In this document: positions 28,203 to 39,488 of the stretch, one piece after another
Numbering within the stretch: the stretch's first letter is position 1
Layout of the letters: every line of letters begins with the position of its first letter
Source of the DNA: Vicinamibacteria bacterium
GTDB lineage: Bacteria; Acidobacteriota; Vicinamibacteria; Marinacidobacterales; Marinacidobacteraceae
DNA length: 64,000 nucleotides
NCBI GenBank assembly: GCA_965232015.1
Contig: OZ246946.1
Location: 245,562-309,561 of the forward strand
Direction of reading: 5' to 3'
Translations under genes and position numbers: made by a program
Notes under the pieces: generated by a model
The model's database searches: none
Told to the model about the DNA's origin: nothing
Seen by the model: only the letters and a program-made list of their open reading frames with translations

Positions 28203-29155
28203 TTACGGGGCGGCCCGGACCAGAACCGGTTCCCGAGCGGGCTCCGTCTGCGGCTTCGCGGCCCGGCGGGGGGTCTCCTCCGGGTCATGGAGGAAACGAA
28301 GCAGGGCTCCGATCACGCCCCGCAGCTCCCGCCGGTGGACGACCCGGTCCAGCATCCCGTGCCGGAGGAGGAACTCGGACCGCTGGAATCCTTCGGGCAG
28401 CTCCCCGCGGATCGTCTGCTGGATGACCCGGGGCCCCGCGAACCCGATGAGCGCTCCCGGTTCGGCGATGTTCAGGTCGCCGAGCATCGCGTAACTGGCG
28501 GTCACTCCGCCGGTTGTCGGATGGGTCAGCACCGAGAGGAAGGGCAGCCCCTCGTCGTCGAAAGCGGCGAGCGCGGCCGAAATCTTGGCCATCTGCATCA
28601 GCGACAGCGCCCCTTCCTGCATCCGGGCGCCTCCGGAGCAGGACACGATGATCAGCGGGCGTCGCTCGTCGAGCGCAGTCTCGATGGCGCAGGTGATCTG
28701 CTCGCCGACCACGACGCCCATGCTGCCGCCGATGAAGCCGTACTCCATGACCGCGAGGACGACCGGAGTGCGTTCGATCCGGGCGCGGACGACGAGGATG
28801 GCGTCGTCGAGTCCGGTCTTCTCCGAGGCCTTGCGGAGCCGAACGTAGTAATCCATCCGGTCGCGGAACCGGAGCGGATCGTTCGATCGGATCCCGCCCG
28901 GTAGCTCGCGGGCGGTGCCCCCGTCCACGAGCATCCGGACCCGGTCCCGCGCCGAGAGCCGCATATGGAAGTCGCATCGGGGGCAGACCTCGAGGTTCTC
29001 CCGGAGCGCCCGGCCGTAGATGATCTCGGAGCAGCCGTCGCAGCGGAGGAACAGCCCCTTCGGAACCTGGGGGCGGGGGCGCTCGGAGGCATCCGGAGCG
29101 GAAGCGACGGGCGCGGGAGCGGCCTCGCCCAAGGGAGTGGACACGGGGATTGGCA
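28203..29155 (-). CDS. accD: acetyl-CoA carboxylase carboxyltransferase subunit beta
   Basis: Zn ribbon CDGCSEIIYGRALRENLEVCPRCDFH and carboxyltransferase motifs GGSMGVVVGE, GGARMQEG. Confidence 0.9.
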
Positions 29156-29235
29156 TCCTAACAGAGTCATGGGCCCTCGCGACGGAGCCAGAATCGGTAG
29201 CGCCCACCGGAGTCCGTCTGACCTCCCGGTAGTGT

Positions 29236-29458
29236 CGGAGCGCCGGACTCCAGTCCCTTGCCTGCGCGCCGGACTCCAGTCGCTTGCCGGAGCGCCGGAC
29301 CCCAGTCCGGCAATTCCACGCGAGGCTGGACCTCGGTGCCTGCACTCCTCGGCCTGCGCGCCGGACTCCAGTCGCTTGCCGGCGCGCCGGACTCCAGTCC
29401 GGCAATTCCACGCGAGGCGGCTCCTCGGTGCTGGCGCTCCTCCGCCGGCGCGCCGGCA
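29236..29458. repeat. REP-like repeat cluster (about 7 units)
   Basis: Repeated GCGCCGGACTCCAGTC(C/G)... units in the same orientation. Confidence 0.85.
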
Positions 29459-29462
29459 ACCG

Positions 29463-30401: not shown

Positions 30402-30908
30402 TCACCGGGCCGGCTTGCCGACCTTGCTCTGGTGCTGGGGACAGAGCTGCTCCAGAGGTACGCCGAGACGCTCCAGGAGAGCGCTCTGCTCGTCCCAGTC
30501 GCTGTCGGTGGCGTTAAGGATCGCTGCGCCGGCCTTCACGGCTACGGCCAGGAACTTCCGATCAGACGGATCGAGTTCGTTCTTGGGGAGCTCTGCGAAT
30601 CCTCGCGACTCGTCCGATGGCGTGATCCGTACCCACTCCGTTGCCGCGGTGTGCGATCCGCCCATGACGGCGATGCAGAATTCACTTCCAACGCCTCGGC
30701 CTGCTCGATTGTCGAGAAGTCTCTTCCGGTACTCACCCAGGACGCCCCACGACGCATCGACACAGACGATGGTCCGGCTGCGAGTCACTGCTTCGAGTCG
30801 CGCCGTGCACGCCCGTTGACAATCCAGGTCGGCGTGTGTGTCCACATCCCCACAGCTTCCCGCCTCGGCGGCGATCAGAACATTCGTGTCCACGACAACG
30901 CGTGTCAC
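30402..30908 (-). CDS. PIN-domain nuclease
   Basis: MTRVVVDTNVLIAAEAG and ATDSDWD acidic residues. GTG start overlaps the ATPase stop (GTGA). Confidence 0.8.
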   Translation of the reverse strand: MTRVVVDTNVLIAAEAGSCGDVDTHADLDCQRACTARLEAVTRSRTIVCVDASWGVLGEYRKRLLDNRAGRGVGSEFCIAVMGGSHTAATEWVRITPSDESRGFAELPKNELDPSDRKFLAVAVKAGAAILNATDSDWDEQSALLERLGVPLEQLCPQHQSKVGKPAR

Positions 30909-32296
30909 GCCTGGTCCTCCATCCGCCGCCGCATTCCCGCCTCCTGGATCGCGAACACTTCCGCGAGCTCATCGCCGAAAAAGTCCTTGGGCCAATTCTT
31001 GATCTGACCGTAGCGATCGAGTTCGAGGTCGTTGAGTTGAGCTCCACTGTCGCCCGTAGAAACGAAGAAGAGTCTCACGTCGGCGGAGCCCTCTGCTCCC
31101 TCGGCCCTGCGCCGTTGAATTCGACGCAGGAGGTGCTCGCTGTGGCTCTCCATGACGATCTGAACATCGCGTGTCTGCGCCGCGTGCAAAAACACATCCG
31201 CCAGGATCGCTTGTGCGGAAGGATGAAGGTGGATCTCGGGTTGCTCCAAAAGGACAATGGAACCTTGGGGAACGTGATACAGAAGGACAAGAATCGGCAA
31301 GACCTGAGAGACCCCGAACCCGACATCGGTGAGCGTGGACTCGCATCCATTCGGGCTGGTCGTCACGAGTGCCCGCCACAGGTTGGACTGCTCGTCGATC
31401 CGTACGATCCGAAAACCTGACACGAGACCCATTTCCTTGAGCCAGTGAGCGATGACCTCCTGAAACGGACGGCCGCGCCCCTTCTCGTCAATTAGTTCCT
31501 CGCCGGACTCGGTTGCCGCGAGCAGAGCATCAATAGTCAGTTCTCCGCGTGTGCCGACATCGGTAGGCCGGACTCCGCCGAAGCGATAGAATCGGTGAGG
31601 GCGCGCCCGTAGCGGACCTAGGTATGAGATGGAGTCCATCATGATTTCATACAGGAAGGGCGCAATGCGGAGTTGACGTATGACCTGACGGTCTTTTCTG
31701 CTCCCGGTGTCCTTGGTGCGGGAGGCACCGGCCCAGTAATGCGTTGGAAGAACGTAGCTCTTGGCCGGCGCGATTCGACCGCCGCGGTGTGAAGAGAGTC
31801 GCCTCACCTCCTCAATCGGCCCGTCGTTGTTGATGAACTCATAGCCGTCGGCTTCGTGTGCGCGCCGAATGCCGATCCAATGGTCCCCGACGTGATAACA
31901 GAGGTCGATCGTCTCGGGAGCGGACCCGCGTAGGCGCACGCTGGACTCCAGACGGTGCTCCGGCGCGCTCCTTAGCGAGGGATGGTCGGCACGAAACGGT
32001 CGGCGATGGCGTTCGTACCAGCTCACCGTCCACGACAGGGCGAGACTCTGGTCGTGTCGGTGAATCAGGTCTCGGTAACTGCCGAGATTGACGAGTTGGT
32101 CTGGACCTCCGAAGTTCAGCGTGACGGCGGGGTCTGTCGCGTTCCTCGTCTGCTTCAGCATGAGGAGGAACTGGAACAGGCTGCTCTTGCCGGAGCTGTT
32201 CGTCCCGAAGATGCCGGTGAGCTGGCCGAACTCCAAGTCGACAGCCTTCCATGCCTTGAAGTTCTCGAGGTGAAGTCTGGTGATCACGGTCCCTCC
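30905..32296 (-). CDS. ABC-type (OLD/Septu/PARIS-like) AAA ATPase, AAA_15/21 with DUF3696-like C-terminal region
   Basis: Walker A GIFGTNSSGKSSLFQ and Walker B / H-loop IVLLEQPEIHLHPSAQ. GTG start at 32296 with strong RBS AAGGAGGG. Lower GC (about 57-60%) than the backbone. Confidence 0.8.
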   Translation of the reverse strand, partial: GGTVITRLHLENFKAWKAVDLEFGQLTGIFGTNSSGKSSLFQFLLMLKQTRNATDPAVTLNFGGPDQLVNLGSYRDLIHRHDQSLALSWTVSWYERHRRPFRADHPSLRSAPEHRLESSVRLRGSAPETIDLCYHVGDHWIGIRRAHEADGYEFINNDGPIEEVRRLSSHRGGRIAPAKSYVLPTHYWAGASRTKDTGSRKDRQVIRQLRIAPFLYEIMMDSISYLGPLRARPHRFYRFGGVRPTDVGTRGELTIDALLAATESGEELIDEKGRGRPFQEVIAHWLKEMGLVSGFRIVRIDEQSNLWRALVTTSPNGCESTLTDVGFGVSQVLPILVLLYHVPQGSIVLLEQPEIHLHPSAQAILADVFLHAAQTRDVQIVMESHSEHLLRRIQRRRAEGAEGSADVRLFFVSTGDSGAQLNDLELDRYGQIKNWPKDFFGDELAEVFAIQEAGMRRRMEDQA

Positions 32297-32354
32297 TTCG
32301 CCGGGATGGCGCCGAACGGTGACGGGCGGCTGCGCCCAAGCCCGTTTCCGAACT

Positions 32355-33747
32355 CTACCGGCGGATGAGGCCAAGGACGAACTCCTCGTGCATCCGTCGC
32401 TCGATCCCGGACCTCGTCGCTGCGCCCCAGCGAGCCGGCATCATCCGGCGGTCGCGATCCAGCCGCCGCCGACCGATGCCCGCGACCTCGAAACCGGTCT
32501 CCTCCGCGAGCGCCGCCAGCGCGAGGTGGGTCTCGACGTCGAGGCCGCGCAGCACGGAAGTGCCCACGACCACGATCGCCGCCCCTCCCGGCCGGAGGAC
32601 GCGCTCCGTTTCGCGCAGCACGGCCGCCATGTCCCCGAAGTAGCGCCGGAGAACCGCGGCCTTGCGCCGGTCGAGCTCCGCGAGGGCCGCCACCGTGCGT
32701 CCGCAGCGATCGGGCAGGTCGCCCCGGCCGCCGCCGAGCACGGCGTCGTGCCCGACGTAGCGCCGGCGCAGGCGGGTCAGATCGGCAATCCTCCAACCCA
32801 GCCACACCAGCGAGAACTTGTGCGCCCGCATGTAATCAATCGCGCCGTTGGCGTAGGGCGGCGACGTCACGACCAGATCCACGCCCTCGGGCGGCAACCC
32901 GGTGTCCGTCGCCGGGGCGTCGAGCACTCGGGCGGTCGGCGCGTCGTCCCCGGCCCCGGCCGGAGCGCCCCGGGACCGGACGATGCGGCGGAGACGGCCC
33001 TCGAACACCGCCAGCGCCGGTTTCGGCTGCTTCGCCTCGACCCGGTGGGGCCGGGTGTGGGCCAGATCCCGCGCCAGCGAGACGCCACCCGACTTGGCGA
33101 TGATCGTCGAAGAGAGGACGACCTCGAGGAATCTCCGCGTTCGGGGCTCGCGCACGCCGGAAACCGCGGCGGCGAGCGCTTCCAGCTCGAGCTGCTGCGC
33201 CGGGCGGAACCAGTAGTCCACGAACTTCCGCGTTGCGGCGTCGAAGCGGCGGTCGAGGTCGCGCGTCAGCCCGGCGGCATCGCTCCGCAGGCGGGCGCCG
33301 GCGAGCGCGAGAACATCGCGTCCCGCCTCCGCGGCGGCTCCCGGGTCCGGCGGAGCCAGCTTGGCGAGCGCGATCCGGCGGGCGAGCGGATCAATATCGC
33401 AGCCGATGGCTCGCCGCCCGAGCGACTGCGCCTCGACGAGGGTCGTTCCGGAGCCCGCCATCGGGTCGAGCACGGCGTCGCCGGGCCGCGACAGGACCTC
33501 GATGAACCGGCGGGGCAGGGCGGGGGGGAACTTCGCCGGGAACGGATGCCAGCGGTGGCGGCCGGACGAGCCCCGGCGCCCGTGGAAGCCGAGATCCGCG
33601 TCGAGCAGCGCCCGGAGCCGCTCGCCGACCGGTTGCACCTCCGCGTCGGCCGAAGTCTTCGAGCGCGGCGCTGCCGGGTCGGGGAGCGGGAACAGCGAGG
33701 GCGCCTCGGGCACGGTGCGTCCGGCGGCGCGATTGCGGCCCGGCATT
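32355..33747 (-). CDS. site-specific DNA methyltransferase (N6-adenine/N4-cytosine, PF01555-type, circularly permuted motif order)
   Basis: AdoMet motif HPFPAKFPPALPRRFIEVLSRPGDAVLDPMAGSGTT comes first, then catalytic TSPPY and RVLRPGGAAIVVVG. Alternative start at 33809. Confidence 0.8.
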
Positions 33748-33772: not shown

Positions 33773-33792
33773 GGCGCCATTGTCCCGCGCCG
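33773..33792. repeat. 20-bp direct repeat GGCGCCATTGTCCCGCGCCG, left copy
   Basis: Identical 20-mer at 36066-36085. The pair brackets a 2.3 kb segment. Confidence 0.7.
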
Positions 33793-33809
33793 CTGGCGCC
33801 CCGGCTCAC

Positions 33810-34400
33810 GAGGCTGAAGCGCGCGGCGTGACATCTGCCGCAAACGACCCGGTCGAGGAGTCTTCACCCCCTTTTGGACGCTCGGTCGTCGCCTGCCCCC
33901 GCTGCGCCGTTCGTCTGCGTGAGGAGTGGGATGGCGGTGATGCAGCCGGACGTGTGGCGGGTACGCGCGGGCGGGGACGGCCCATGAACTCCGACGACGC
34001 AGTCTTGACGCTCATCGTGCTTGGCCGGTGGAACTGCGGCATCATCGTGGCGTGGTAACGGATGATCCGGCGCGACACCCGGCATGAGTTCGGCGCACTC
34101 CGCCGGGATCTCCGTCGCGGGTTCGCGCAGGCCCGCCAGGTACGACTCGAACGCCGGCGGGAGTTGGTGAGCCCGCTTTCCCGGGATGGAGCAGCGTCTT
34201 CGTCGGCATGACGACGGCGACCTCGACGCCATCGGTGGCGAACCAGTCGCACGTGTTCACCATCACGGCCTGGATTGCCCGTGGCTCACCTCTGCCACTG
34301 CACCTCGCGGGTGCGATGCGTGGTGGCAGCATACGAAGAATGATGCCGAGCCGACGCAACCTGTGAGCTGTGCGCCTCAGCCTGCCAATCGGTAGGATCA
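33810..34400 (-). pseudogene. gene remnant: several partial frame-shifted protein-like fragments, no intact ORF
   Basis: Fragments VMVNTCDWFATDGVEVAVVMPTKTLLHPGK, FESYLAGLREPATEIPAECAELMPG and IRYHATMMPQFHRPSTMSVKTASSEFMG lie in three different frames. Confidence 0.3.
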
Positions 34401-34820
34401 GCGGTCCCTGTTCGACCAGAGCGCTCGGAAACCCTCCTGGGTGAAGTGCCTGTCTCCGGTGAGGACATCGCTAATGTCGAGTTTCCGCATTACGACCATG
34501 GAGACGCAATCCGTCAGGCTGTAGCCCTTGTCCTCTCGCTGCTCGTACAAGTCCAAGCCGGCCAGGAACGAGCTCCGGGTCTGGGGTTCTACCCGGATGC
34601 TGCGGTCGTCGAGGATCTCTCGCACCGTGATCGTGGCGCGCTTTCTCGCACGGGATCCGAGCGTGCACAGTGCGGCAAGGAATTCGACCAGCACTTCATC
34701 TGTAGTCACGAGTTGGGCCCCTGCGACTGCGTTCCCGGCTCTTGTCGCGGCCCTGTGCCAAGGATCCCTCGGATTCGCCACGGCGATCCAGTACGCCGCG
34801 TCCACGAAGACTAGCTTCAC
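34398..34820 (-). CDS. PIN-domain VapC-like toxin
   Basis: MKLVFVDAAYWIA...TTDEVLVEF...TDCVSMVVMRKLDISDVLTGDRHF. GTG start overlaps the stop of the upstream partner. Confidence 0.8.
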   Translation of the reverse strand: MKLVFVDAAYWIAVANPRDPWHRAATRAGNAVAGAQLVTTDEVLVEFLAALCTLGSRARKRATITVREILDDRSIRVEPQTRSSFLAGLDLYEQREDKGYSLTDCVSMVVMRKLDISDVLTGDRHFTQEGFRALWSNRDR

Positions 34821-35722
34821 GTGTCGTCCACGCCGTAAATGTAGTGATCCAGCCGAGCGGACAAGTCACTTGGGAGCTTCTCCCACTCCTCATCGGGGAC
34901 ATCGGAGAAGATTTCGGCGATGCGCGCCTGGATAGCCGGTGCGTCCGTCAGAGAAGACGGTCGTCCGTCATCAACCAGAGTGATCGAGTCGGCCAGAGTG
35001 ACCTCGGTCAGAGCACCCATGGGTTCGAAGCGCCCCCTGCCAGCCACTCGGATCCGCGCCACCCGGTGTTCCTTGAGCGCCTCCGTGACAACCGCTTCCT
35101 GAGGCTTTGTGAAGCGGACGGGGATGCATCGCCCGTCATCCGTCCAGAGCTGAAACTTCCACCGGTGGACATCGGCTTCGAGCACCCGCCCTTCCAGGTA
35201 AATCGAGTCCGGGTACGGCTGGTCCATGAGGGAGCGGACGACGGTCCGCGTCTTATCGGACACGATCGTTGTCGGTCGGTTAGGGGAAGTGAAGGAAAAA
35301 CGCGCGCCCGCCGGAAGGTCTCGTCCCAACCCCTGACACACCCGCACGACGTGCATCGGAACACCTCGTGGAGGAGGCTCATCGCGATTGGCCGCTCCCA
35401 GCGTCTCGGAGGTCAACCGGACCGCTTCCTCCATCACCGTGGGGGCATCAAGCAGGGGAGTAGGGTCGGGCGAACGCGGCGCGAGCCGGATCGACACGCT
35501 TCCCGCCTCGATCGCCGTGAAACAGAGCTGAGTCCGTTCGTCGAAGCCCTTGGGGACGCGCTCGCGTGCCGGATGGCGCACCTTCCAGACAGCGCGAGCC
35601 GCCTCGGTCACGATCTTCTGGAACTGAAGCACGGTCCGGAGGGCACCCGCATCCAGCGCTCCACCCGCGTAGGGCTCCCCCCCAAAGTGGAGCCGCACGA
35701 GCTCCGAGCGTCCTGTCGTCAT
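34817..35722 (-). CDS. 301-aa hypothetical protein in the antitoxin position upstream of PIN toxin; no recognisable antitoxin fold
   Basis: MTTGRSELVRLHFGGEPYAGGALDAGALRTVLQFQKIVTEAARAVWK... Stop overlaps the PIN start. RBS GAGGGA. Confidence 0.5.
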   Translation of the reverse strand: MTTGRSELVRLHFGGEPYAGGALDAGALRTVLQFQKIVTEAARAVWKVRHPARERVPKGFDERTQLCFTAIEAGSVSIRLAPRSPDPTPLLDAPTVMEEAVRLTSETLGAANRDEPPPRGVPMHVVRVCQGLGRDLPAGARFSFTSPNRPTTIVSDKTRTVVRSLMDQPYPDSIYLEGRVLEADVHRWKFQLWTDDGRCIPVRFTKPQEAVVTEALKEHRVARIRVAGRGRFEPMGALTEVTLADSITLVDDGRPSSLTDAPAIQARIAEIFSDVPDEEWEKLPSDLSARLDHYIYGVDDT

Positions 35723-35775
35723 GAGCGGCCGTCCCTCGGACCAAACGCGGCGAAATCCGCGCTGCCCAGTGTTCG

Positions 35776-35797
35776 CCGACAATATACATTGACACGG
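35776..35797 (-). promoter_or_regulatory. AT-rich imperfect palindrome CGACAATATACATTGACACGG upstream of the 34817..35722 / PIN operon; candidate promoter (-10 TATATT on minus strand) / operator
   Basis: The only AT-rich patch in an otherwise 70% GC intergenic region, about 55 nt upstream of the start codon. Confidence 0.3.
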
Positions 35798-36065
35798 CTC
35801 GTGTCGGGGCCCTGTGCCTGGCTGAGTCGCCCCCGAGGTCCCGGCGACAGGAGATCGCGCCCGGCGCGGAACAGTTCGGCCGAGTCGGGGACGACGAGGA
35901 GGCCGAGGCCCTCGGGCGGGAACACCTTGAGAGGCAGGCGGTCAGGGCGGAAGGGGAGGAGATGCGCACGGGCGAGGAGGCTTGGTGCCTCGCCGATGAG
36001 GACCATCTGCTGGCGGGGCTGGCCGCCATCACCGCGCGCCCCGACGCCTCGGGGCCGCGCTTCTC

Positions 36066-36085
36066 GGCGCCATTGTCCCGCGCCG
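36066..36085. repeat. 20-bp direct repeat GGCGCCATTGTCCCGCGCCG, right copy
   Basis: Identical to 33773-33792. Confidence 0.7.
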
Positions 36086-36142: not shown

Positions 36143-37933
36143 ATGGAAGCGAAGACCCTGAACCAGCTCCTCGCCGCCGCCTGCGCCCGGCACGACAAGC
36201 CCGACGCCCTCATGCACAAGGCCGACGGCGAGTGGAAGAACATCTCGTCCGCCGAGTGGCTGGATGCAGCCCGCGACGTGGCGATGGGCCTCCACGCTTT
36301 CGGCGTGAAGAAGGGCGAGCGCGTGGTCCTGCTCTCCGAGAACCGCGTCGAGTGGTTCTTCGTGGAGGCCGGGCTCCAGATCCTCGGCGCCGTGACCGTG
36401 CCGATCTATCCCAGCCTGACCGCCGGCCAGGTGGCTTACATCGTCAACAACTCGGGGGCCCGGGTCGTCGTTTGTTCGACCGCCGAGCAGCAGGCCAAGG
36501 TCGCGGAGGTCCGCGACGAGCTCTCCACCGTGGAGGCCGTCTATTCGTTCGACGAGCCGACCATCGAGTCCAACGCCGAGTCGTGGACGGCGGTCACCGA
36601 CGCCGGGAAGCGCGCCCGCGAGGCCGACCCCGGGGGTGCCGAGCGGCTCGCGGCGCAGGTCGAGGAGGACGACCTCGCGACCATCATCTATACCTCGGGC
36701 ACGACCGGGGACCCCAAGGGGGTGATGCTGACCCAGGCGAACCTCCTGACCAACGCGATCGTGGGCGCCCGCACCATCGCAACGATCGACGAGGACGACA
36801 TCGCGATGTCGGTCCTCCCCTACGCCCACGTGTTCGCCCGCATGGTGGCGCACTACCTCTACCCGCACCTGGGGGTCACGATCGCCATCGCCGAGAGCAT
36901 GGACAACCTCGTCGCGAACATCGGCGAGGTGCGTCCCACGGTCATGGCCTGCGTGCCGCGCTTCTACGAGAAGATGCGCGACCGGGTCATGGAGTCGGCG
37001 GCGGCCGGCAGCCCGGTGAAGCAGAAGATCTTCCACTGGGCGTTCCGGGTGGGCCACGCGGTGGGCCGTCACCGCCAGGACGGTACGGAGCCGTCCGGCT
37101 GGTTGGCGTTCCGCTACAAGGTGGCCACGAAGCTGGTGTTCAGCAAGCTGCACGCCCGTCTCGGTGGCCGGATGCGGCTGTTCGTCTCGGGCGGCGCCGC
37201 GCTGCCACGCGATGTGGCCGAGTTCTTCCTCGCCGCCGGCTGGCTGGTGATCGAGGGCTACGGCCTCACCGAGACCTCCCCCGTGATCAGCGTGAACCGG
37301 CCGAGCCGCTTCCGGTTCGGGACCGTGGGGCCGGTGGTCGAGGGCGTCGAGGTGCGCATCGCGGACGACGGCGAGATCCTCTGCCGCGGCCACAACATCA
37401 TGAAGGGCTACTTCGGGAACGAGGCGGCCACCGCCGAGGCGATCCGCGACGGCTGGTTCCACACCGGCGACATCGGGGAGTTCGACGCGGACGGCTTCCT
37501 CCGGATCACCGACCGCAAGAAGGACCTGCTGGTGACCGCCGGGGGCAAGAATGTCGCGCCGCAGCCCATCGAGGGCAGGCTCAAGGCGAGCGCGCTGATC
37601 TCCGAGATCGTGATGGTGGGCGACGGCAAGCCCTATCTGTCGGCGCTCGTGGCGCCCGACTTCGCAGCGCTCGCCGCCTGGTGCGCCGATAACGGCGTCG
37701 CGGCGGACGGTCCCGAGGCGATGGCCGCCAGCAGCCGCGTGCGCGAGCAGCTCATGTCCGAGGTCGAGCGGCTCAGCGAGGGACTCGCCTCCTTCGAACG
37801 CGTGAAGAAGATCGCGGTGATCGCGGCGGAGTTCTCGATCGAGACCGGCGAGCTGACCCCGACGCTGAAGGTGAAGCGACCGGTGGTCGCGAAGCGCTAC
37901 GCCGACGTGATCGAGAACCTCTACGCGGCCTGA
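36143..37933 (+). CDS. AMP-dependent synthetase/ligase (long-chain fatty-acid--CoA ligase-like)
   Basis: AMP-binding motifs TSGTTGDPKGVML, YGLTETS, GWFHTGDIG, GKNVAP. Confidence 0.85.
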   Translation: MEAKTLNQLLAAACARHDKPDALMHKADGEWKNISSAEWLDAARDVAMGLHAFGVKKGERVVLLSENRVEWFFVEAGLQILGAVTVPIYPSLTAGQVAYIVNNSGARVVVCSTAEQQAKVAEVRDELSTVEAVYSFDEPTIESNAESWTAVTDAGKRAREADPGGAERLAAQVEEDDLATIIYTSGTTGDPKGVMLTQANLLTNAIVGARTIATIDEDDIAMSVLPYAHVFARMVAHYLYPHLGVTIAIAESMDNLVANIGEVRPTVMACVPRFYEKMRDRVMESAAAGSPVKQKIFHWAFRVGHAVGRHRQDGTEPSGWLAFRYKVATKLVFSKLHARLGGRMRLFVSGGAALPRDVAEFFLAAGWLVIEGYGLTETSPVISVNRPSRFRFGTVGPVVEGVEVRIADDGEILCRGHNIMKGYFGNEAATAEAIRDGWFHTGDIGEFDADGFLRITDRKKDLLVTAGGKNVAPQPIEGRLKASALISEIVMVGDGKPYLSALVAPDFAALAAWCADNGVAADGPEAMAASSRVREQLMSEVERLSEGLASFERVKKIAVIAAEFSIETGELTPTLKVKRPVVAKRYADVIENLYAA

Positions 37934-37994: not shown

Positions 37995-39488
37995 GTGACC
38001 ACGGACCGGTTCGAAACCGTGATCGGGCTCGAAGTCCACGTGCAGCTCGACACCCGGACCAAGCTGTTCTGCCCCTGCCGCAACACGTTCGGCGAGCCGC
38101 CCAACTCGCAGATCTGTCCGGTCTGTTACGGCCTCCCCGGGGCGCTTCCGGTTCCGAACCTCCGCGCCGTGGAACTCGCAGTCGTCGCGGCGCTCGCGCT
38201 CGACTGCGAGGTGGAGCCGGAGTCCATCTTCGAGCGGAAGAACTACTTCTACCCCGATCTGCCGAAGGGCTACCAGATCACCCAGTACGACAGGCCGATC
38301 GCCCGGCGCGGCGGCGTCCGGATCCAGGTGGGAGACGCGTCTCCGCGCATCATCCGCATTCACCGCATCCAGCTCGAGGAGGACGCCGGAAAGCTGGTCC
38401 ACGACGGCTACCGGGGGTCGGAGGAAGGGAGCGGGGTGGACTTCAACCGGGCCGGCGTCCCGCTCATCGAGATCGTGAGCGAGCCCGATCTTCGGTCCGC
38501 CGCCGAAGCGGGCGACTACGCCCGCACCCTCCGGCAGCGCATCGTCCACGCCGGGGTCTCCGACGCCGACATGGAGAAGGGCAACCTGCGGATGGACGGG
38601 AACATTTCGATCCGCCGCCGCGGGGATGCCGCTCTCGGCGCGAAGGTGGAGCTGAAGAACCTGAACTCCTTCCGCTATCTCGAGCGGGCGCTCGCCTACG
38701 AGGAGGTCCGTCAGCGGAGGATCCTCCGCTCCGGAGGCGTCGTGGTCCAGGAGACGCGCCTGTTCGACGAGGGCCAGGGCCGCAGCTTCGCCATGCGGTC
38801 CAAGGAGGAGGCGGCCGATTACCGCTACTTCCCCGACCCGGACCTGCCCCCGCTGCGGTTGCCGCCGGGGCTGGTGGAGTCCGCCCGCGCCGGACTCCCC
38901 GAGTTCCCGACCGACCGGGCCGCGCGCTTCGTCCGCGACTACGGGATTCCGGAGGACGCCGCCCACCAGATCGCGGCGCGGCGCGGGCTCGCCTCGTACT
39001 TCGAGACTGTCGTCGAGGCGGCTGCGGGGTCCGGGACCCCGGCCCGCGACGTCGCGCCGGTCGCGGCGGCGTTCCTGACCACCGATGTCGTCGCGCGCGA
39101 GAAGCAGGACGGCGGCTTCCGCGCGCCGCCGCGCCCCCTCGGCCAACTGATGGCCCGCCTCGCCGACGGCCGGCTGCCCCGCAACGCGGTTCGGGATCTC
39201 TTCAACGCGCTCGCCGACCGCGGGGAGGATGCTCCCGAACTCGATGCGCTGATCGCCGAGCTCGGGTTCGACCATTTCGCCGGCGGGGACCGCCTCGAGC
39301 GGGCGGCGGCGGAGGTTGTCGCGGCGTACCCCGACGAGGCGGCGGCCTACCGGTCCGGCAGGAAGAAGGTCATCGGCTTCCTCATGGGTCGGCTCCTGCG
39401 CGAACTCCGCGGCAAGGCGGACGCCCGGGCCGCCCGCTCCGCGCTCGAACGGGTGCTCGAAGGAGCGCCGGACTCCAGTACGGCCTGA
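37995..39488 (+). CDS. gatB: Asp-tRNA(Asn)/Glu-tRNA(Gln) amidotransferase subunit B
   Basis: FETVIGLEVHVQL, CPCRNTFGEPPNSQICPVCYGLPG, and the GatB/YqeY C-terminal domain. GTG start. Confidence 0.9.
   Translation: MTTDRFETVIGLEVHVQLDTRTKLFCPCRNTFGEPPNSQICPVCYGLPGALPVPNLRAVELAVVAALALDCEVEPESIFERKNYFYPDLPKGYQITQYDRPIARRGGVRIQVGDASPRIIRIHRIQLEEDAGKLVHDGYRGSEEGSGVDFNRAGVPLIEIVSEPDLRSAAEAGDYARTLRQRIVHAGVSDADMEKGNLRMDGNISIRRRGDAALGAKVELKNLNSFRYLERALAYEEVRQRRILRSGGVVVQETRLFDEGQGRSFAMRSKEEAADYRYFPDPDLPPLRLPPGLVESARAGLPEFPTDRAARFVRDYGIPEDAAHQIAARRGLASYFETVVEAAAGSGTPARDVAPVAAAFLTTDVVAREKQDGGFRAPPRPLGQLMARLADGRLPRNAVRDLFNALADRGEDAPELDALIAELGFDHFAGGDRLERAAAEVVAAYPDEAAAYRSGRKKVIGFLMGRLLRELRGKADARAARSALERVLEGAPDSSTA
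39463..39485. repeat. single REP-like unit at the gatB / kinase junction
   Basis: GGAGCGCCGGACTCCAGTACGGCC. Confidence 0.7.

Follow-up and report, generated by a model that had tools for sequence, protein, structure and literature searches.

A strain-specific toxin-antitoxin insertion beside a defence island

We analysed a 64,000-nucleotide (nt) stretch of contig OZ246946.1 from a Vicinamibacteria bacterium (hereafter, the window) and focused on the segment at 33793-36065, which lies between two perfect 20-bp direct repeats. This segment is probably a horizontally acquired insert in an acidobacterial defence-island hotspot, carrying a type II toxin-antitoxin operon with a modular antitoxin. 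The locus is a strain-specific insertion of a VapBC-type cassette accompanied by hitch-hiking pseudogene fragments. To its left, on the − strand, lies a DNA methyltransferase gene (PF01555, 32355-33746), and to its right a gene for a FadD-like acyl-CoA ligase (36143-37933) followed by gatB. The two repeat copies fall in the spacers next to these genes:

33773-33792, no strand: left repeat copy, 26 bp upstream of the methyltransferase ATG (33746, − strand).
36066-36085, no strand: right repeat copy, 57 bp upstream of the FadD-like ATG (36143).

The repeat, GGCGCCATTGTCCCGCGCCG on the + strand, is present in exactly two copies, in the same orientation and at the positions given by the original prediction, as confirmed by an exact and mismatch search of the 64 kb. 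No further copy was found across this length with up to three mismatches allowed (chance expectation, 0.08), and the longest exact match in 400 control pairs of 1-kb window pieces was at most 15 nt, pairs hitting the 20-bp repeat excepted. The 20-mer is thus not a common repeat in the window, nor is it one in the relatives' sequences inspected.

Related genomes provided three sites at which the insert is missing. Locus L138, which is in the same genome and on the same 1.05-Mb contig as a second cassette locus described below (L002), has flanks 91-97% identical to those of the window. Its FadD and methyltransferase genes are 104 bp apart, and the spacer reads ggcggcgcggcccccgga-GGCGCGATTCTCTCTCTCCG-ttctgcacgagcgggccggctcgcctaagatcg, that is, one 20-nt site between the window's left flank, ggcggcgcggcccccgga, and its right flank, ttc.gcac...ggctcgcctaagatcg. 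The copy-1 junction of L139 (93-95% identical) has the same arrangement: its site is GGCGCGATTCTCTCTCGG, and the sequence to the right of this site is identical to that beside the right repeat copy in the window. The left flank of the left copy is likewise identical to the single-site flank in both L138 and L139. In the more distant L006 (FadD, 92%), the order is RNA ligase, HEC-03, methyltransferase, about 197 bp, FadD, so that about 197 bp replaces 2378 bp of the window. The presence of a single site of 18-20 nt between the same flanks in L138, L139 and L006 indicates that 33793-36065 is an insertion. The comparison with relatives that the original prediction had proposed therefore yielded empty sites and supports its suggestion that a cassette was integrated, or that recombination took place, here in the past, with the qualification that the site in L138 and L139 is an allele identical to the repeat at 12 of 20 positions. 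In L007, whose FadD is 83% identical, a homologue of the housekeeping gene at 28203-29459 directly adjoins FadD, and the island is absent altogether.

The same hotspot is filled differently elsewhere in L139 (1-5638). Two tandem methyltransferase alleles, one truncated and one full length, flank another insert there, consisting of a gene for a protein of 382 amino acids (aa) without a Pfam match and a DDE transposase fragment. The stretch made up of the methyltransferase 5′ region and the site is present twice there, over 1062 bp (about 1.07 kb), and the copies are only 90.7% identical, indicating that they are two alleles rather than a fresh duplication. About 7 kb from the empty site of the L002/L138 genome, at 16487-17169 of L138, we also observed another small pair of antitoxin and PIN genes (80 aa and 147 aa).

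The insert is a mosaic that includes an argB fragment

The insert consists of an argB 3′ pseudogene fragment, a two-gene operon and about 600 bp of frame-shifted debris. Outside the two genes, its parts are as follows:

33793-34397, − strand: frame-shifted gene debris, defined by a frame plot of guanine-plus-cytosine (GC) content at third codon positions in three shifted frames; no Pfam match.
35723-35825, − strand: operon 5′ region, with a Shine-Dalgarno sequence GAGGGA (35732-35737), a −10-like TATATT (35781-35786) and a hairpin, GACACGAGCCGTGTC (35791-35805).
35826-36012, − strand: 3′ pseudogene fragment of argB (acetylglutamate kinase), defined by homology to the ArgB of L002, with an internal deletion of about 46 codons.

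The argB fragment did not figure in the original prediction. By BLASTP, it matches residues 279-320 of the L002 ArgB with 64% identity (E 4e-14), and it also matches the peptide VLIGEAP at residues 223-229, which together indicate the internal deletion. A candidate reading of 35800-36030 as a methyltransferase N-terminal remnant was rejected, since blastx gave no significant match and the stretch is the argB fragment. Positions 35946-34372 of the window are 77.6% identical in DNA sequence to 9756-11325 of L002, where the homologous stretch starts within an intact argB (PF00696, E 6.6e-40) and continues through the partner-PIN operon. The fragment thus indicates that the cassette once adjoined argB, as it still does in L002, and dragged part of this gene along. 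At 77.6% identity, the two cassettes are more diverged than the host flanks (91-97%), so that the donor lay outside the L002 lineage and was a more distant source in which argB and the cassette were likewise adjacent. The GC content of the operon is 0.637, compared with 0.697 for the window.

The frame-shifted gene fragments of roughly 600 bp noted in the original prediction are supported by the frame plot, in which the third-position GC peak moves through three frames, consistent with frame-shifted coding remnants. Three composite translations of the debris had no Pfam match at E ≤ 10, a frame-corrected 107-aa composite had no homologue among 5.8 billion proteins, and tblastx against all loci gave compositional noise only. 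The 382-aa gene of L139 is unrelated to the debris. At its left end, the debris (33793-33815) resembles the sequence following the site beside L139 methyltransferase copy 2, the L139 homology reaching 33815. Its right end (34270-34397) is common to the window and strain locus L001, which diverges at about 34270 and does not share 33793-34269.

The AT-rich palindromic promoter/operator patch of the original prediction was retained in part. The TATATT and the hairpin exist, and the Shine-Dalgarno sequence and TATA(T/G)T are kept in L002, but the palindrome is not conserved there, a sigma-70 consensus scan found no promoter, and the hairpin was listed only as terminator-like. No tRNA or Rfam RNA was found near the segment.

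A predicted PIN toxin and a 301-aa partner with a shared, putatively toxin-binding tail

The operon of the insert comprises two overlapping genes:

34398-34820, − strand: predicted PIN-domain toxin, 140 aa, GTG start, VapC20-like (PF01850, E 2.6e-7).
34817-35722, − strand: predicted modular antitoxin (the partner), 301 aa from ATG, with an alpha/beta domain (residues ~1-168), an OB fold (~168-252) and a tail (~262-301), EEWEKLPSDLSARLDHYIYG.

The VapC-like assignment of the PIN gene is borne out by the PF01850 match and by the closest solved structure, Mycobacterium tuberculosis VapC20 (E 1.8e-7). The protein retains the acidic residues D7, E46, D104 and D123, which are conserved in 53-54 of 54 family members. 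These features suggest that the protein is toxic and acts as a VapC20-like ribonuclease. VapC20 cleaves the sarcin-ricin loop of 23S rRNA, a specificity that serves only as a lead for the window toxin. In L002 (10879-11300), the PIN gene has an apparent 1-nt deletion that leaves only a 76-aa open reading frame (ORF) beside an intact partner gene, reflecting either toxin decay or a long-read assembly error.

The partner gene lies upstream of the PIN gene in the same operon, and its stop codon overlaps the PIN start codon (GTGA). The original prediction correctly described the partner as unusually large and of unknown family: it has no relative in Pfam, NCBIfam or among solved structures. We can now describe it more sharply as a VapB/FitA-type tail on an alpha/beta plus OB module resembling PDC-M32A. 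In a sensitive profile search, the partner family comprised 312 representative clusters at E ≤ 1e-30 and 3100 at E ≤ 1e-3. The gene pair is conserved. In all 17 testable full-length metagenome loci, the downstream gene encodes a PIN protein homologous to that of the window, usually with a 4-bp overlap, and a PIN gene follows the partner or tail protein in 59 of 65 metagenome loci overall. The pair also occurs in L004/L005, L052-L054 and L055. Among viral contigs, only one tail-only relative was found. In strain locus L051 (2741-2780), the partner gene is longer by about 39 bases, in which about 33 bp (window 35278-35310) recur as a small tandem duplication in the antitoxin.

The metagenome scan also recovered shorter proteins encoded upstream of the same PIN family. 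Some, of about 135 aa, consist of an OB domain and the tail. Others are antitoxins of 86-126 aa that are alike only in their last ~35 residues (EEWxKLPxDLxxxxDHYxYGTPK), with heads that are FitA-like RHH (E 2e-7), RHH_3 (E 1.9e-6), DUF2281 or AF2212-like. The tail is the single element common to these upstream proteins, from 86 aa to 300 aa, indicating that it goes with the toxin, as expected of the toxin-binding part of a VapB/FitA antitoxin. Accordingly, we infer that the partner probably binds and neutralises the PIN toxin through this tail. One OB-plus-tail/PIN pair, in L082 (1981-7810), lies within a dense array of toxin-antitoxin-like genes; by eye these are ParE-like, a second PIN, HEPN/nucleotidyltransferase-like and BrnT/BrnA-like, and the region has further repeats.

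The antitoxin head recurs with other toxin classes

An AlphaFold2 model of the whole partner was confident (predicted local distance difference test score 84, predicted template modelling score 0.69). In this model, the head comprises an alpha/beta domain without a close solved structure, followed by an OB fold. Neither Pfam, NCBIfam nor the model revealed an RHH, AbrB, HTH or Phd DNA-binding domain. The fold is common to three uncharacterised phage or prophage proteins in BFVD, with template modelling scores of 0.5-0.65, one of which is annotated as DUF6575. A profile match to PDB entry 9hnh, a repeat protein, was dismissed as not meaningful.

Residues ~6-271 of the partner match positions 4-265 of the 375-position PADLOC profile PDC-M32A (E 2.6e-29). 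Conversely, the partner-family profile recovered true PDC-M32A proteins (P0158, E 7e-101), which have a different C-terminus. P0066 carries this N-terminal module in fusion with an MNT nucleotidyltransferase, the domain that serves as antitoxin to HEPN toxins. Locus L003 (5422-10507) encodes a 43%-identical partner that has the PIN-type tail and no adjacent PIN gene and is followed by separate MNT and HepT genes; all of these lie inside a type III restriction system, with its mod gene (MTase_III, E 2.4e-146) on one side and its ResIII gene on the other. The occurrence of the module with a PIN tail, with MNT and with the PDC-M32A C-terminus indicates that this head is portable among antitoxins of several toxin classes; it is found in defence contexts. 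Judged from this architecture, the head may be a regulator or sensor that binds a ligand or nucleic acid.

Weighing insertion against loss in the relatives

Several observations weigh against the reading of the segment as an acquired insert with a sensor-like antitoxin. The single site of the empty genomes is another allele, beginning GGCGCGATTCTCTCTC..., which shares only the 12 of 20 positions with GGCGCCATTGTCCCGCGCCG even though its flanks are at least 90% identical. The duplication can thus not be read as a simple copy of the relatives' site, and a clean duplication of the resident site would need an ancestor with the window's allele. This allele was seen only beside methyltransferase copy 2 of L139, with one mismatch; that copy is 95% identical to the window methyltransferase and the closest to it. 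The right repeat copy has the same sequence in L001 as in the window, but in L051 it is a third, hybrid-looking version, GGCGCCATGCTCTCCCGCGG, within a stretch otherwise 98% identical: its first 8 nt are those of the window allele and the remainder is unlike either allele. The left junction lies off both of these contigs. Deletion between the repeats in the relatives would leave the same empty sites, so that only the argB fragment and the GC content would favour insertion. The PIN protein matched no PADLOC model at E ≤ 0.1, and the locus is thus not PDC-M32 as defined. Finally, the OB fold and weak ferredoxin-like similarities of the head point to no ligand.

The alternative of an ancestral segment, lost from the relatives by recombination between pre-existing 20-bp repeats, fits in that such a deletion leaves one copy, as found in L138, L139 and L006. 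We nevertheless consider it highly improbable. L007 lacks the entire island, the single sites are of the other allele than the repeat, the segment has an argB fragment and lower GC, and the divergence between this cassette and that of L002 far exceeds the divergence between the host genomes. The repeats themselves would, moreover, still need an origin. On balance, the segment is better read as acquired.

Flank repeats across the cassette family and the route of insertion

Around the L002 cassette there is a perfect 27-bp repeat of other sequence, located in the last codons of argB, so that this cassette represents a second independent insertion. Exact flank repeats were present at L083 (37 bp), L120 (31 bp), L002 (27 bp), L124 (22 bp), the window (20 bp), L127 (18 bp) and L068 (17 bp), and gapped ones at L120 (195 bp at 88%), L124 (142 bp at 80%), L068 (57 bp) and L082 (50 bp). 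Flank repeats scoring above 36 were found at 8 of 49 family loci compared with 4 of 336 random control placements, which were unmatched for island context. The sequence of the repeat differs at every locus. At several it is a gene end: the argB 3′ end in L002, the comM 3′ end in L127 and a methyltransferase-like 5′ end in L068. No terminal inverted repeats were found at the ends in seven repeat-flanked loci. In L127 (21-3833), full-length comM is followed by about 1 kb, a diverged 125-codon comM 3′ fragment, the toxin-antitoxin pair and the 18-bp comM-end repeat, an order that looks like successive insertions at one gene end.

One route that would produce such structures is a decayed integrase-mobilised island, comparable to a cis-mobilisable element, in which a site-specific recombinase would have joined a site on the element to the chromosomal one. 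The 20-mers would be attL and attR, and the integrase and most of the cargo would have been lost while the addictive toxin-antitoxin pair and part of the debris were kept. This route fits the perfect direct repeats and the empty site of the relatives, and the last codons of argB and the comM 3′ end after a comM fragment are classic places for integrase targets. The long imperfect duplications in L120, L124 and L068 resemble element-borne copies of a target-gene end, the right copy of L051 looks like a hybrid of the window allele on the left and another sequence on the right, as from a crossover inside a core, and the debris differs between strains as if decay were ongoing. However, as the original prediction correctly stated, the segment has no integrase: neither a transposase nor a recognisable recombinase or integrase remnant was detected in 33793-36065 by ORF inspection, Pfam or the search of 5.8 billion proteins. 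Nor was an integrase seen in the neighbouring ORFs scanned by eye at the repeat-positive loci, where other toxin-antitoxin genes were found. The called neighbours of L002, L004, L052 and L055 include no recombinase, and those of L003 only DDE transposase genes of the insertion sequence type, 5-6 kb away. Both the sequence and the length of the repeat differ from locus to locus, so that no common core exists, and the insert has argB sequence from upstream of the L002 repeat, which precise excision from an att site in argB would not carry. We consider this route rather unlikely.

A route without a dedicated recombinase appears possible and somewhat easier to reconcile with these loci, although we hold it only tentatively. 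Entry would have occurred by a Campbell-type single crossover of a circularised foreign fragment over a shorter or longer tract of identity, by end-joining or fill-in at a staggered break or by replication template switching, each of which would duplicate local sequence of arbitrary length, and the toxin-antitoxin pair would then resist loss. The highly variable length of the duplications (18, 20, 27, 37 and ~50-195 bp, and 1.07 kb in the L139 hotspot), the enrichment of flank repeats at family loci, and the absence of terminal inverted repeats and of conserved cassette ends are in line with this. So are the mosaic of fragments in the insert and the lack of fixed unit boundaries, the window insert starting inside argB and the L002 unit not. 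By contrast, 20 bp is at or below the usual length for a RecA-dependent crossover, any donor circle would need to have inherited the identical 20-mer, a donor molecule was not seen, the enrichment was measured against controls unmatched for island context, and the sequence data fit decay of an integrase-borne element too. Taken together, repeats of variable length without a common core, undefined cassette boundaries and the structure of L139 lean toward recombinase-independent insertion; the gene-end targets and the hybrid-looking site of L051 lean toward a decayed integrase-borne element. A literature search for toxin-antitoxin cassettes with direct repeats at their ends found no pertinent work.

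The host defence island

The insert sits at the edge of a defence island. Directly downstream of the methyltransferase gene on the − strand is a complete PADLOC candidate system, HEC-03 (30402-32374; GC, 0.615), whose genes overlap by 4 bp:

30905-32374, − strand: HEC-03B, AAA_15/DUF3696 ATPase (PADLOC, E 3.7e-151).
30402-30908, − strand: HEC-03A, PIN_3-like (PADLOC, E 1.8e-42).

An RNA-ligase-domain gene lies further left. HEC-03 is present in L006, deleted in L138, where an 87-aa remnant is left, and absent from L139 and L007. The operon of the insert is co-oriented with the methyltransferase and HEC-03 genes, so that read-through from the operon promoter could reach them. The spacer that borders the island on its left (29230-29431) contains two tandem 92-bp units, 89% identical, of a ~26-nt sub-repeat, GCGCCGGACTCCAGTC, and one more copy of this type of repeat is found at the gatB end (39455-39484).

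A model for the locus and its implications

We propose the following model. Foreign DNA would have entered the short spacer between the defence-island methyltransferase gene and the housekeeping fadD-gatB genes, and the resident site would have ended up on both sides, so that the 20-bp repeats would be the two junctions. The partner and PIN proteins would be translated from one mRNA through overlapping stop and start codons, and the 301-aa partner would neutralise the PIN ribonuclease through its C-terminal tail in the fashion of VapB and FitA. The head module might bind nucleic acid or a phage-derived ligand and thereby couple toxin release to infection or stress. The rest of the insert would be hitch-hiking debris.

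Two linked possibilities extend this model, and we regard the combination as speculative and rather unlikely. In the first, the alpha/beta plus OB module would be a portable sensor head across toxin classes, attached to a VapB tail for PIN toxins, to MNT for HEPN toxins and to the PDC-M32A C-terminus for PDC-M32B; toxin-antitoxin pairs would then become infection-triggered defence switches. In the second, PIN-family cassettes would spread by recombinase-independent insertion-duplication, leaving target-derived repeats at hotspots in defence islands, with lengths that are arbitrary and range from 18 bp to about 1 kb.

The window and its two strain contigs, together with sites of three kinds that are empty or filled in another way, form a naturally replicated record, at base-pair level, of turnover at a defence-island hotspot. 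The partner gives a testable architecture to a domain that has so far been only a PADLOC candidate label, and its VapB-type tail pins it to a PIN toxin; judging from the MNT fusion elsewhere, this regulatory or sensing head may be reused among antitoxins. Target-derived repeats at about one-sixth of the family cassettes, without a recombinase, bear on how chromosomal toxin-antitoxin loci move.

Comparison with known systems

As a mobile unit, the insert differs from insertion sequences, transposons and miniature inverted-repeat transposable elements in that it lacks terminal inverted repeats and a transposase, and the duplications in its family measure 18-195 bp instead of being short and fixed. 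The element e14 and phage 21 in icd are integrase-borne islands that duplicate the end of their target gene. The window shares with islands of this type the repeats at both junctions, the empty site in relatives (of the other allele) and gene-end fragments beside the cargo, but it has no integrase, its target is intergenic and the loci of its family have no common core.

Among defence systems, the partner resembles PDC-M32 in the match of residues ~6-271 to PDC-M32A. It differs in having a VapB-type tail in place of the last ~110 PDC-M32A positions, and the segment has no PDC-M32B, as it has no gene besides the partner and PIN genes. PDC-M32 is itself a computational candidate only, and the literature found merely lists it. 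The HEPN-MNT systems, whose MNT component is PADLOC PDC-S09, are related through the N-terminal module of the partner, which is fused to MNT in P0066 and lies near MNT and HepT genes in L003; in the window, by contrast, the toxin is a PIN protein, and both MNT and HEPN are missing.

The closest likeness in operon and toxin is to VapBC, in particular VapBC20, and to Neisseria FitAB. They share a PIN toxin with four acidic residues and an antitoxin gene that is upstream and overlapping, and the C-terminal tail of the window partner is also found on short FitA-like RHH antitoxins of homologous PIN proteins. Unlike the antitoxins of these systems, that of the window is 301 aa long and has an alpha/beta plus OB head instead of an RHH, AbrB, HTH or Phd head. 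Neither the toxin nor the operon logic is out of the ordinary; less ordinary are the modular antitoxin with its PDC-M32A-like head, the recurrent target-derived repeats without a recombinase, and the well documented sites that are empty or filled in another way.

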